IMG/VR virus record: IMGVR_UViG_3300027833_000015
Location: 32,001 to 96,000 of that record
Strand: one strand, 5' to 3'
From: a virus
Length of the DNA stretch: 64,000 bases
Within the stretch, counting starts at the first letter, position 1; each line of letters begins with the position of its first letter. A program made the translations under genes and the position numbers. Below the pieces are notes generated by a model, which saw only the letters and a program-made list of their open reading frames with translations, was not told the DNA's origin and made no database searches. Shown here in pieces: positions 54,660 to 58,771 of the stretch.

Positions 54660-55423
54660 TAGAATCCGAATCCTATATCTTTTCTGCTTAGTGGTTTAGA
54701 CTCCATAAAGGTCATGGCGATGTCTATCTCTGCGAAATATGGTTTGCCGTTCTTTCCGCGCAGGAATGTTTGATTCGCTGAGTTGTAACTTGTCGTGAAC
54801 GAATCCAGATATGCGGGTGCTATCTTTTGTGCTGGGAGTTCTTTGTTGCCATAGAATTGCTGTATAAAGAACCTGTCTGGAAAGTTATAACCAGCACTGG
54901 CGTTGATGCCGAGACCCTGTGCTTGTATCATAGAAGGATACAACTCAGTCCTGAAAACTTTGATTATCCGTCCAATCATTTCTGCTTCTGCTTCAGACAC
55001 AGGTTGTAATTTGAATTGGAAAGAGAATGAGCGCAGATTGACCTGCTTAAATAATGCGCGAGTGTTTGGGTTTGGTGCCACCTTGTTTCTTGCCCTTGCT
55101 ACCTCTGCTGCTCCTGGAGAGAAAGTCTTCGTGATACCGTTGACAAGCAGTCCCTGAATACCTTTGTCGGCAAGTTGCTCGGAAGGTATACTGAAATCAG
55201 GGGCAGCATTTCCGTCAGCAATTGCACCACCTACTGCACCGAGTTCAGCGTTCTCATATTCTACCTTGTCGGCATACTGGACGCCTTGAGGGAGGAACAA
55301 GTGTATTGTGTTACCTTTAAACTTCGCATTGTCAGTATCACTACGCTCAAGTGAGTCAACCAATGAGAATCGGATTTCTCCTTTATACGACTCAGCGTCG
55401 AGGGGGAACCTTAATTCTGCCAT
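54659..55423 (-). CDS. gp48: Baseplate tail-tube cap gp48
   Basis: LRFPLD, IHLFLP, NPNTRALFKQVNLRSFSFQFKLQPVSEAEA, MTFME. Confidence 0.85.
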   Translation of the reverse strand: MAELRFPLDAESYKGEIRFSLVDSLERSDTDNAKFKGNTIHLFLPQGVQYADKVEYENAELGAVGGAIADGNAAPDFSIPSEQLADKGIQGLLVNGITKTFSPGAAEVARARNKVAPNPNTRALFKQVNLRSFSFQFKLQPVSEAEAEMIGRIIKVFRTELYPSMIQAQGLGINASAGYNFPDRFFIQQFYGNKELPAQKIAPAYLDSFTTSYNSANQTFLRGKNGKPYFAEIDIAMTFMESKPLSRKDIGFGF

Positions 55424-55432
55424 CTTCTTCTG

Positions 55433-55464
55433 CCTAAATAGGTTTATCTTTCAATCTATTTATA
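55433..55464. promoter_or_regulatory. Face-to-face late promoters for gp4 (+) and the gp48 operon (-)
   Basis: CCTAAATA on + (55433-55440) and TATAAATA on - (55457-55464). Confidence 0.65.
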
Positions 55465-55468
55465 CACC

Positions 55469-55978
55469 ATGAACAAGACTTATAAAGGCAAATACAAAGT
55501 CAAGAACCCAAAGAAGTATAAAGGGGACGTGAACAACGTTGTCTATAGAAGTGGTTGGGAACGTGATGTGATGGTATACCTTGACGACCACACTGGTGTT
55601 GCTGAGTGGAACAGTGAAGATTTTATAATAAGATACTTCTATGAAGTTGATAAGAAGAACCACAACTACCACATGGACTTCTGGATAAAGTTCACCAACG
55701 GAACTATCCTACTTGTTGAAGTCAAACCCAAACGTCAGACAGAACCACCCAAGTCTAAGAACCCTCGGTCAAAGAGGGGACTCACAGAAGCGTTCGCGTA
55801 CATAAAGAACCGCAACAAGTGGGATGCAGCAGAGAAGGTTGCCAAGGATAATGGTTATGGTTTTGTTATCTGGACAGAAGTCGAGTTGACAGAAATGGGC
55901 ATCCTCAAGAAAACTCCTGGCACCATCAAGAAACTGAAACCGATGGCACCTTACCGCAAGAAGAAGAAAAAGACTTAA
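55469..55978 (+). CDS. gp4: Head completion nuclease gp4
   Basis: YKGKYKVKNPKKYKGD, YRSGWE, WNSE, YHMDF, LVEVKPKRQT, NRNKWDAA; the only plus-strand gene. Confidence 0.93.
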   Translation: MNKTYKGKYKVKNPKKYKGDVNNVVYRSGWERDVMVYLDDHTGVAEWNSEDFIIRYFYEVDKKNHNYHMDFWIKFTNGTILLVEVKPKRQTEPPKSKNPRSKRGLTEAFAYIKNRNKWDAAEKVAKDNGYGFVIWTEVELTEMGILKKTPGTIKKLKPMAPYRKKKKKT

Positions 55979-57834
55979 CCTCTTCGTCTCCTGTCGGTTC
56001 GATCGCTGGCATCCATAGCATTCGGCATAGCACCACGGTGAGTCGTGTTGCTCACATTCGTTGTGGTTGACGGTGCGTTGACCGCGACAGCAGCACCCCC
56101 TCCAGCACCTGCAAGATCAGACTTACCATCATTCATCTTTGTTGTGCTTTGCTGCATTTGAGCAGAGGCAGCAAGGGAAGTGCCAGAACCTGCCATGGAA
56201 GGTCTAACTGTCTCCACTTCCTGTCCATATGTATCAGCAAACATAGATGCCTTTTCAAAATCATCGAATGTCTCAACTTGTCCAGACATAGGGTCAAACA
56301 CCCTGAACGTAGATCCTTCACTACCTGCTGGTGCTTTGATCGAACCTGACATTGGGAGACCAGTTACAGGGTCGCGTTGCATGGCAGTAGCGACAGTTGC
56401 CGTCTTCGAAGACGGTTCGCTAATACCCATCTCTGCTTGGATCTGAGCGAGTTCTTCGGGTGGGATTGATGCCAAAAATGCATCGCTTTTTGCCTTTGAT
56501 GCTGCTGCATTCACTTTTGCTTGTGCTGCCTCATCTGGTGTCATTTCAGGCGAGACCTGCTTTATTGCAGCAAGTAGTGAGTCATCACCAGACGGTGCCG
56601 ACCCTCCTGTCATTTGCCTCAACATGTCTTTGACCAACTTCATCTGGTCGTCAGAGAGGTCATCGTCGTTTACGATTGCCTGTAGTTGTTCTGGTGTGGC
56701 ACTCGCAAGCATGCTCTCATCTACCACTGAGTCAACGTTACCAGTAAGTCCTACTGTGTTCTTCTCATACAGACCAGAGTTTTTCGCTGCTCTCTCAGCA
56801 TCATTTTGTTGCCCTTGATCTAATTCTATCACAGGTGCTTCGGGTTCAGTCGATTCGGGAAATGATATACCCAAGAACTTTGCTGCGGTGGCACCGATGT
56901 CTATGATCCAATCGATGAATGCACCAATCCCGTCGAACATTGCTGCCATACCTTTCCGTGCAGGTTCAAAGTTTTCCCAGACTTTCATGACATATCCCCC
57001 TACCGTCTTTGCGATGTCGACGAAAACGTCTTGAATGTCACCCATAAGAGAGAAGAAGTCACTGACAATAGCAGACAAAGTATCAAAGATGGTGAATGAA
57101 TCGAGGAAATCACTGACGAAGTTTCCTTCACCAAGTATAGAAGTTGCAATGTAAGACAGTCCGTCTTTGAGGAAGTCGAGAGGCAATGTGACAACTTTCA
57201 AGATACCTTGAAAGAATCCCTCAATTCCTGCCATAAGTTTTTCGGCAAAGGATCCTTCGTTGGCGTTAAAATAATCGAATGCTTGCATCAACCCATATAC
57301 AACTGCACCAATTGCAACACCAACTGCCAGTATGACAGGGATGAGGGGAATTATTACTGCTGTCATGGTACCAAACGCTGCACCAAGTCCACCCATCATT
57401 GCCGAGATAGGGAGAAAACTATCGAGCAGTCCTTCAACACCATCTTCACCCGCACCCTCTTTGCCTTTGTTGAATTCAGAAAGAAACTTGCTGCCCTTCT
57501 TTTCATCTTCCCCTTCGGGGTCTTTGTTTCTCTTTTTCTTTTTGGCGGCAAGTGCATCTGCGTCCAGTTCAGCATCTGACATTTCGAGCGCAGTAGCGAT
57601 TTGATTTTGACTGGCAATTTCAATGGTAGCAGGTATCACATCTAAGAAAGTCAACAGGATTCCTTCGATACGCAGGAGGGTCTGTGACATGAGATCCATC
57701 GAGTTGCCGTTGACTTCCTCAAGACTCTCAAACGTGCCTTCGATACTCTCGAATTGCGCGTCCATCAAAGCAGGAAGGTTTTGATTGAACAAAACCAACT
57801 CCTTTGATACACCTTCCAATATACTGTCTGCCAT
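55975..57834 (-). CDS. Probable tape measure / baseplate hub protein, gp29-like
   Basis: About 619 aa helical protein with hydrophobic segments and a C-terminal VNAPSTTTNVSN motif; directly after gp51; TAATG coupling sets the start at 57834. Confidence 0.65.
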   Translation of the reverse strand: MADSILEGVSKELVLFNQNLPALMDAQFESIEGTFESLEEVNGNSMDLMSQTLLRIEGILLTFLDVIPATIEIASQNQIATALEMSDAELDADALAAKKKKRNKDPEGEDEKKGSKFLSEFNKGKEGAGEDGVEGLLDSFLPISAMMGGLGAAFGTMTAVIIPLIPVILAVGVAIGAVVYGLMQAFDYFNANEGSFAEKLMAGIEGFFQGILKVVTLPLDFLKDGLSYIATSILGEGNFVSDFLDSFTIFDTLSAIVSDFFSLMGDIQDVFVDIAKTVGGYVMKVWENFEPARKGMAAMFDGIGAFIDWIIDIGATAAKFLGISFPESTEPEAPVIELDQGQQNDAERAAKNSGLYEKNTVGLTGNVDSVVDESMLASATPEQLQAIVNDDDLSDDQMKLVKDMLRQMTGGSAPSGDDSLLAAIKQVSPEMTPDEAAQAKVNAAASKAKSDAFLASIPPEELAQIQAEMGISEPSSKTATVATAMQRDPVTGLPMSGSIKAPAGSEGSTFRVFDPMSGQVETFDDFEKASMFADTYGQEVETVRPSMAGSGTSLAASAQMQQSTTKMNDGKSDLAGAGGGAAVAVNAPSTTTNVSNTTHRGAMPNAMDASDRTDRRRRG

Positions 57835-58031
57835 TATCGTGCCGCCTTTCTCTGTTCCGCTTTCTCGTTTTCTTCTTTTATGTACTGAGTAAGCAACGCA
57901 ATGTAGATTGCCCTCTCCCACGGTAACATATTATCCAACTCCGTCAAACTATAATTATGGTGTTGCATCAAAGCGAAATTGGTCTTGTAATGGTTTACAA
58001 GGTTATCATGAGACAGGGTTATTAGAAAAAA
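57834..58031 (-). CDS. gp51: gp51 baseplate hub assembly reading frame, probably reached by -1 frameshift from gp26; first ATG at 57968
   Basis: FFLITLSHDNLVNHYKTNFALMQHHNYSLTELDNMLPWERAIYIALL...; not in the ORF track. Confidence 0.85.
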   Translation of the reverse strand, partial: FFLITLSHDNLVNHYKTNFALMQHHNYSLTELDNMLPWERAIYIALLTQYIKEENEKAEQRKAAR

Positions 58032-58771
58032 TCAGATAACCCTTTCAACTCTACAGCGTTTTTGCTTCCACATTTAGTACACTCGAATTCCGCATTGTGT
58101 TTCAATGCAGGCATATTTTCTAAAAAGTCTGTCATCACCTTTAACTGATTCGCTGTCATATTATCGACAAACGCGATCATGTCTTCTAAGGATTCGTTTT
58201 TCGAATCAATTCTTTCGTCCTGTGTCAGAACAGCACCGATACAACTCGCCAGCAGTTCAATTACATTGGTGGACTTTTTCTCTTCTGCTTGAGAGACGCC
58301 CTCGCGTATCATAGTCTCATACGTGGGATACTTCATCTCCACAGATATTTCTGGTGTTATAACGACAACATTACCACCATCAGCAGCAGAGACAGATAAC
58401 TGGTCGAGGTCTATCGTGTATTCATTTTGCTCACCACAAGTTGTTCGCTTTGGGTTTATACCATCAATCAATGAAGTGCACGAGATCATTATCGTGGATG
58501 TTTCCCCTACAGACTTTGACCGTAGTTGGGTAAACATAAACTCGATGTCGAACGTGGCGAGTTGCTCTACATTTAAGTTTGCCTTTGGATCCACGCATGC
58601 GTTCAGAGTATCTGCCATGGCAGACAAACACATATGCATATCCTTTGACTCAAACGCTTGTAGTAATATCTTCTCTTCTTTGACCAAGTATGGTCGGTAT
58701 TTGACACGCTGCCCAGTTGAGGGGATTGTCATATTAAAATTCAGCGTTTCGTTAATCTTGGGTAATGCCAT
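58022..58771 (-). CDS. gp26: Baseplate hub assembly chaperone gp26
   Basis: MALPKIN, IPSTG...YRPYLVKEEKILL, FDIEFMFTQLRSKSVGE, MKYP, CTKC, GLSDFF. Confidence 0.9.
   Translation of the reverse strand: MALPKINETLNFNMTIPSTGQRVKYRPYLVKEEKILLQAFESKDMHMCLSAMADTLNACVDPKANLNVEQLATFDIEFMFTQLRSKSVGETSTIMISCTSLIDGINPKRTTCGEQNEYTIDLDQLSVSAADGGNVVVITPEISVEMKYPTYETMIREGVSQAEEKKSTNVIELLASCIGAVLTQDERIDSKNESLEDMIAFVDNMTANQLKVMTDFLENMPALKHNAEFECTKCGSKNAVELKGLSDFF

Follow-up and report, generated by a model that had tools for sequence, protein, structure and literature searches.

A conserved poly-T heptamer at the gp26/gp51 junction of T4-like phages points to one tail chaperone gene read in two frames

How is a gp51-like reading frame expressed when it carries no recognizable start of its own? 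This question is raised by the minus strand of a 64,000-nucleotide stretch of DNA from an uncultured marine T4-like phage (positions 32,001 to 96,000 of the IMG/VR virus record IMGVR_UViG_3300027833_000015; henceforth the window), in which a gene resembling gene 26 of phage T4 is overlapped at its end by a gp51-like frame, just upstream of a long gene. A first interpretation made from the letters alone (the sequence-only reading) had proposed that gp26 and gp51 of this lineage are the counterpart of lambda G/GT, that is, a short protein and a fusion that is made by -1 frameshifting. Conservation of the junction, homology of the fusion to in-frame gp51 proteins and a structural match to the HK97 tail chaperone support this equivalence. 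The mechanism itself we infer: a single PF12322 gene probably encodes both forms of the tail chaperone by way of a -1 ribosomal frameshift on T_TTT_TTC.

The gp26-like open reading frame (ORF; minus strand, 58771-58022) has a 0-frame product of 249 residues, the putative short form of the tail assembly chaperone (TAC-N), and its 3' end reads GGG TTA TCT GAT TTT TTC TAA TAA. Here the heptamer T_TTT_TTC (58031-58025) lies in X_XXY_YYZ phase and is followed directly by two tandem 0-frame stops (58024-58019), while a TGA that closes the -1 frame (58034-58032) abuts the heptamer on its 5' side. From the heptamer onwards the -1 frame is open for 65 codons (FFLITLSHDNLVNHYKTNFALMQHH...) up to a TAA (57836-57834), which overlaps the ATG (57834) of a 619-residue gene. 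The sequence-only reading had singled out the heptamer against the stop, the TGA before it and the overlap with the next ATG, and the sequence and its translations agree on each of them. The first ATG of the -1 frame (57968-57966) comes 21 codons in and is preceded by a TTG at 57971; these two codons (57971-57966), 20-21 codons past the heptamer, are the earliest possible -1-frame starts, and no Shine-Dalgarno (SD)-like 4-mer was found upstream of this ATG. The gp51-like stretch begins 5' of it, as had been recognized. The conceptual -1 fusion, with the predicted junction peptide ...GLSDFFLITLSHDNLVNHYK, comes to 312 residues; the sequence-only reading had put it at about 313. Only nine runs of six or more T occur on the minus strand of the 64-kb window and the same run recurs in the same phase at all related junctions of this type, so the T run at the junction is more than a chance occurrence.

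The comparison took in 94 frameshift-type junctions. Eighty-eight of them come from Kyanoviridae, a pelagiphage, Emdodecavirus, a KVP40-type vibriophage, Nanhuvirus and 80 IMG/VR contigs, to which six further ones, including Pootjesviridae, were added. The cultured phages are P-SSM2, ACG-2014i, Pelagibacter phage Mosig, Sinorhizobium phage phiN3, Vibrio phage phi-pp2 (of the KVP40 species), Cronobacter phage LPCS28, Rhizobium phage AF3, Agrobacterium phage OLIVR5, S-H34, S-CAM8 and S-8S55, and DNA similarity between them and the window is limited to the junction and the -1 ORF. The T6 run is invariant and holds the identical codon phase in 94/94 junctions, its length being six in 46, seven in 42 and eight in six of them, never by extension upstream. 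Among the 88, T_TTT_TTN stands in phase with a 0-frame stop zero to two codons on (eight in Mosig) in 87, the stop coming zero or one codon past the heptamer in 85. The -1 frame is closed immediately upstream of the heptamer in 25/88 and within 14 codons upstream in 85/88. Dereplication at 85% identity left 60 sequences, which we used for positional entropy and for the counts of starts and SD-like motifs. Their seventh base is T in 29, C in 25, A in 5 and G in 1, the sole G (T_TTT_TTG) being that of Rhizobium phage AF3 (L095:1195-1220). Conservation of TTTTTT[CT] in this phase had been put forward as a check on the frameshift, and across deep T4-like lineages the motif indeed recurs, as TTTTTT[TCA]. 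A rescan of viral contigs with the KVP40-type peptide returned only two near-identical loci.

The entropy profile of the 60 sequences records a switch of coding frame at the heptamer. Wobble falls on 0-frame third positions up to the heptamer and on -1-frame third positions after it, with codon periodicity following the -1 frame from about offset +15. Coding conservation upstream of the gp51 ATG had been proposed as a second check, and conservation in the -1 frame does begin at the heptamer. Entropy is zero throughout offsets 0-5, even at two 0-frame third positions that could be C without changing the amino acid; elsewhere in the same ORFs, TTT makes up 67% of the Phe codons and NNT 69% of the Asp, Asn and Ser (AGY) codons. 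Since the first T of the heptamer is invariant, although it occupies a synonymous third position in the 0 frame and has no coding role in the -1 product, selection appears to act on the slip site itself. A 0-frame stop at offsets +10 to +12 is almost universal as well (T at +10 in 60/60, A in 53/60), so that two stops stand in a row where the first one abuts the heptamer.

Profile searches place the two frames in one family. The 249-residue product matches PF12322 ('T4_baseplate', E 8.9e-54, 182.9 bits against a gathering cut-off of 24.5) and phrog_150 ('baseplate hub', E 3e-55, profile positions 5-232 of 282), and its ORF is the only PF12322 gene in the entire 153,883-bp virus record. The -1 peptide matches phrog_634, the 'baseplate hub assembly catalyst' gp51 (E 3.5e-28), and also positions 231-281 of phrog_150 (E 9.4e-8), the same profile that the upstream ORF fills to position 232.

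T-even-type phages carry the predicted long product in a single frame. Gene 51 of Aeromonas phage 25, T4 and Acinetobacter phage Kimel encodes 249-251 residues comprising a PF12322 body and a C-terminal tail (residues 2-198 of the Aeromonas phage 25 protein are PF12322, and the tail follows), whereas gene 26 of the same three phages, on the opposite strand, encodes the PF12322 body alone in 201-214 residues. When the -1 fusions predicted for seven phages are aligned with the gp51 proteins of these three phages, the match extends over the full length; the gp26 proteins of the three end 0-5 residues after the position of the Phe-Phe pair encoded by the heptamer. By tblastn, 1,376 T-even-type records contain gp51 as a single in-frame piece. 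Of the top 150 cluster representatives (50% clusters) from the marine relatives, almost every one stops at Phe-Phe. The PF12322 body is thus shared by T4 gp26 (208 residues), T4 gp51 (249 residues) and the window gene; T4 gp51 carries in frame the tail that the window has in the -1 frame, and T4 gp26 ends where the 0-frame product of the window stops. The join of this tail to the PF12322 body is a prediction in the window that the homology to in-frame gp51 supports. T4 differs in having two divergently transcribed paralogues and no slip site, as opposed to one gene and predicted recoding here, and in having genes 27 and 28 between genes 51 and 29, where the window has the long gene directly next to the junction. 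The T-even phages thus make the short and the long form from two paralogous genes, and the other T4-like lineages would obtain both from a single gene by recoding. A 13-row tree of gp26 and gp51 sequences separates into three clans (T-even gp26, T-even gp51 and single-gene forms) and offers no usable root. In T4, gp26 and gp51 are hub assembly chaperones, and gp51 is required for assembly yet is not found in virions (Leiman et al., 2010; PMC3004832). Cyanophage and vibriophage gp51 proteins were noted to lack the first ~200 residues, which was left unexplained (Sullivan et al., 2010; PMC3037559). By our reading, the small 'gp51' of cyanophages and of other T4-like phages outside the T-even group would be the C-terminal extension of the long form and no independent protein.

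The simplest reading of these observations, and in our view the likely one, is that two tRNA-Phe slip in tandem by -1 on U_UUU_UUN. Most ribosomes would stop at the TAA at 58024-58022 and release the 249-residue short form, the equivalent of T4 gp26 (TAC-N). A minority would slip back by one base, with the two tRNA-Phe re-pairing on UUU UUC of U_UUU_UUC, and would go on to read CUA AUA ACC... along the -1 extension (58025-57834). The 63 residues gained in this way would complete a 312-residue long form, the equivalent of T4 gp51 (TAC-NC). The slip would be ribosomal and low in efficiency, and both products would act on the tape-measure-like protein encoded downstream, as lambda G and GT do. 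Several points weigh against this reading. The 312-residue product is a prediction from the sequence only, and the T run would suit slippage of RNA polymerase as well. An SD-like element upstream of the heptamer is inseparable from constraint on the protein it encodes, and RNAalifold, run on 49 and on 60 ungapped junctions, detected no downstream hairpin or pseudoknot conserved among them. Finally, Pseudomonas phage Cygsa01 has no T6 and an ATG that overlaps the gp26 stop, and in Rhizobium phage AF3, P-SSM2 and S-8S55 an ATG lies 4-5 codons past the heptamer.

What might stimulate such a slip? In the window, an SD-like AAAGGG (58045-58040) lies 8 nucleotides 5' of the heptamer and could be a stimulator of the dnaX type. 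An SD-like 4-mer occurs at -16 to -7 of the heptamer in 56/60 relatives, mostly starting at -13, with RAGG 9-10 nucleotides upstream; it coincides with conserved Lys/Glu/Arg-Gly codons, in which the third base of Gly is free to vary (entropy 1.93). Folding of a 90-nucleotide stretch of the window gave a z of -2.06, with a 7-bp hairpin (CUUGUAA-ACCA-UUACAAG, 58001-57984) that begins 23 nucleotides 3' of the heptamer. We think that this hairpin is probably not a stimulator, since its pairs at third codon positions are kept in only 23 and 27 of 49 relatives, about half of them, and no consensus structure emerged. Strong hairpins of 10-11 bp, 5-7 nucleotides 3' of the heptamer, are present in P-SSM2, S-8S55 and S-H34 (L001:2513-2543 and the same offsets in L090 and L097; z -2.6 to -3.8). 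Their spacing fits a frameshift stimulator, their registers differ by lineage, and the window has no such hairpin. It is a tentative idea, and on balance a doubtful one, that a signal beyond poly-T operates throughout the T4-like lineages outside the T-even group, a structure-free stimulator composed of the dnaX-like RAGG 9-10 nucleotides upstream and the abutting, often doubled 0-frame stop, or else that the event is transcriptional. In the latter case, no transcriptional-slippage gene of marine viruses would be more widespread than this one.

By transcriptional slippage, RNA polymerase would add one U on the T6 run and the same 312-residue fusion would result. This is unlikely, even though a homopolymeric run of six to eight T is present at all 94 junctions, a conserved downstream RNA stimulator was not found there and rU:dA hybrids are the most slippage-prone. 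The bacterial transcriptional slippage sites that have been described mostly have nine or more bases, whereas the window has six T, as do 46 of the 94 junctions, and the maximum is eight. The run never grows upstream, where a longer run would favour slippage of the polymerase, and it always keeps the exact X_XXY_YYZ phase. In the literature, poly-T stretches are called -1 frameshift slippery sequences (PMC12846349), and the PRFect paper takes the 'other mechanism' of a 2022 paper to be two separate genes in some T4-like phages (PMC10885494).

Ribosomal slippage onto the heptamer has also to be weighed against the absence of any fusion. The small gp51 ORF might be translated alone, from the TTG or ATG at 57971-57966 or by re-initiation, the T run being kept since both frames encode Phe-Phe. 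This is how GenBank records annotate it, and the ATG of Cygsa01, which overlaps the stop with no T6 present, and those 4-5 codons past the heptamer in AF3, P-SSM2 and S-8S55 would suit such a start, so that some lineages may possess a small gp51 as a separate protein. For the window we nevertheless regard it as very improbable. The first ATG falls at codon 20 or 21 in 49/60 relatives, as it does in the window, and usually lies inside a segment whose -1-frame protein sequence is conserved. No SD-like 4-mer was found 4-16 nucleotides upstream of the first possible -1 start in any of the 60 relatives, and with it goes the SD-led independent gp51 start that would have spoken against the sequence-only reading. 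Moreover, the need for Phe-Phe in both frames leaves the invariance of the first T unaccounted for, as that base is synonymous in the 0 frame and non-coding in the -1 product, and the in-frame gp51 of T-even phages shows that the C-terminal tail normally sits on a PF12322 body. In Cygsa01 itself (PP179332.1; L098:1150-1230), the gp26 ORF ends AGC ATT TTC ACC TAA TG, and in this lineage the tail may be free-standing and made by translational coupling, with no fusion. In AF3 the ATG overlaps the 0-frame TGA; with a slip heptamer and an overlapping ATG side by side, both routes to the C-terminal tail look possible in that phage.

A few metagenome proteins (P0004, P0009, P0010, P0011 and P0115) are gp26-gp51 fusions that are already in frame, with a junction exactly as a -1 slip predicts (for example ...GLNDFFRIALSH); they are mostly singletons from contigs of 1-2 kb and represent either homopolymer errors or natural fusions. 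That the split itself is a sequencing or assembly error in the homopolymer, the true gene being one in-frame ORF of 312 residues, is scarcely credible even with four of these proteins (P0004, P0009, P0010 and P0011) at hand and homopolymers being error-prone, because the split recurs in 94/94 independent junctions, some of them from cultured phages whose finished genomes were sequenced on different platforms, because the marine cluster representatives nearly all end at Phe-Phe, and because it is the fused forms that are the singletons on short contigs.

Tail chaperone frameshifts of the kind favoured here are reportedly known from lambda (G/GT), HK97 (gp13) and P2 (E/E'), in work said to be that of Levin in 1993, of Xu, Hendrix and Duda in 2004 and of Christie in 2002. 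In these phages the short ORF ends, just 5' of the tape measure gene, with a heptamer on which ribosomes slip by -1, so that a short and a long chaperone are made, as we predict for the window, and P2 slips on a T run, as proposed here. The locus shares with the lambda G/GT type an in-phase heptamer near the point where the short ORF stops, an overlapping -1 ORF that has neither its own start nor a ribosome-binding site and, from a model of the relative P0009, the chaperone fold. It differs from all three systems in that no sequence similarity to them was detected, and in a short form of roughly double the length, which has additional domains beyond residue 90 and, in the window, four Cys in a zinc-ribbon-like arrangement. 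Escherichia coli dnaX (gamma/tau) offers a further parallel, with its purine-rich SD-like element ~9-10 nucleotides upstream and a 0-frame stop that follows the slip site directly; dnaX, however, uses A_AAA_AAG and a strong downstream hairpin, whereas no hairpin is conserved here.

The fold was assessed on P0009, one of the in-frame relatives. An AlphaFold model built with a 90-row alignment reached a predicted local distance difference test score (pLDDT) of 91 and a predicted template modelling score of 0.81, and a single-sequence run gave a pLDDT of 36. By exhaustive structural alignment of residues 1-90 of the model, the HK97 tail assembly chaperone (2ob9_B) ranked first of 48,161 chains (Z 7.7, root-mean-square deviation 3.6 A, 84 of 104 residues aligned). 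At ranks 2 and 3, small proteins covered the same region of P0009 with Z 7.2 and 7.0, followed by a drop to Z 5.1. A Foldseek search of the P0009 model against the PDB gave no match below E 0.3, and sequence searches against solved structures gave none. The fold recurs in a library of viral models among 'baseplate hub' proteins from many myovirus groups. The ranking is what the chaperone reading predicts and, on the strength of this model, lends it support; given the modest Z and the negative Foldseek result, it is support and not proof.

The predicted frameshift is a sound finding but no new one, to judge from two papers that credit it to earlier work. In one of them (PMC12846349), poly-T signals for -1 frameshifting at the 3' end of the TAC-N gene in T4-like phages are attributed to a study by Vladimirov, Gautam and Davidson (Virology 2022), and the other, the PRFect paper, cites the same study for the finding that some T4-like phages have a short gene and a long fused gene and do no frameshifting (PMC10885494); on these two accounts the tail chaperone frameshift was already known.

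Annotation has not followed. As the sequence-only reading had remarked, gp26 and gp51 are usually annotated as two independent genes: all GenBank and RefSeq records examined list two separate genes or omit the small one, and the record of phage Kimel names gp26, gp51 and gp28 'tape measure protein assembly chaperone'. The -1 peptide matches 612 records, including T-even-type ones such as Aeromonas phage 25 in which gp51 is already in frame, and many of the 612 would be better annotated with a joined coding sequence marked as ribosomal slippage. The frameshift would also explain the ~60-residue 'gp51', often devoid of a start codon, of cyanophages, pelagiphages, rhizobiophages and KVP40-type vibriophages. 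The T4 superfamily would then fit the rule that phages with long tails generally produce their tail chaperone in a short and a long version, and T4 itself would have replaced recoding by two genes.

Gene order around the junction runs from gp32, gp2 (the DNA end protector) and the gp54-like tube gene, which lies upstream of the chaperone gene, through the gp26-like ORF with its -1 extension and the 619-residue gene (57834-55975, minus strand), to the gp48-like tube cap gene downstream and a gp53-like wedge gene. The 619-residue gene therefore sits between the chaperone gene and the gp48-like gene, like gene 29 in T4. Its product contains hydrophobic segments and weakly resembles phrog_1272 (tape measure, E 0.027); a neighbouring cluster in a protein atlas carries PF25671 (T4_Tape_measure) with a score of 0.95, which serves as a lead only. 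It had no match in Pfam, nothing of value in NCBIfam and no significant BLASTP similarity to T4 gp29. From its position, its size and this weak similarity, it is likely to be the tape measure, the gp29 equivalent. The sequence-only reading had called it the tape-measure gene outright; the overlap of its ATG with the -1 stop stands, and the label is to be held at that more cautious strength.

Elsewhere, the long gene 3' of the chaperone gene goes by other names: it is annotated 'endolysin' in ACG-2014i (L002:2708-5132) and 'chitinase' in S-H34 (L097:1429-2586), and both are probably tape measures carrying a lytic domain. In the window, the ~550 bp between the tape-measure-like and gp48-like genes (55423-55975) hold only a 169-residue plus-strand ORF (55469-55978) and a 70-residue minus-strand ORF. 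The gp26-like protein of the window (P0001, 58771-58022) has four Cys (SCTS..., TCGEQ, ECTKCG) in a zinc-ribbon-like pattern, which align with the CxxC pairs of T4 gp26 and gp51 and of the vibriophage and Cronobacter forms, and which the cyanophage and pelagiphage forms have lost.

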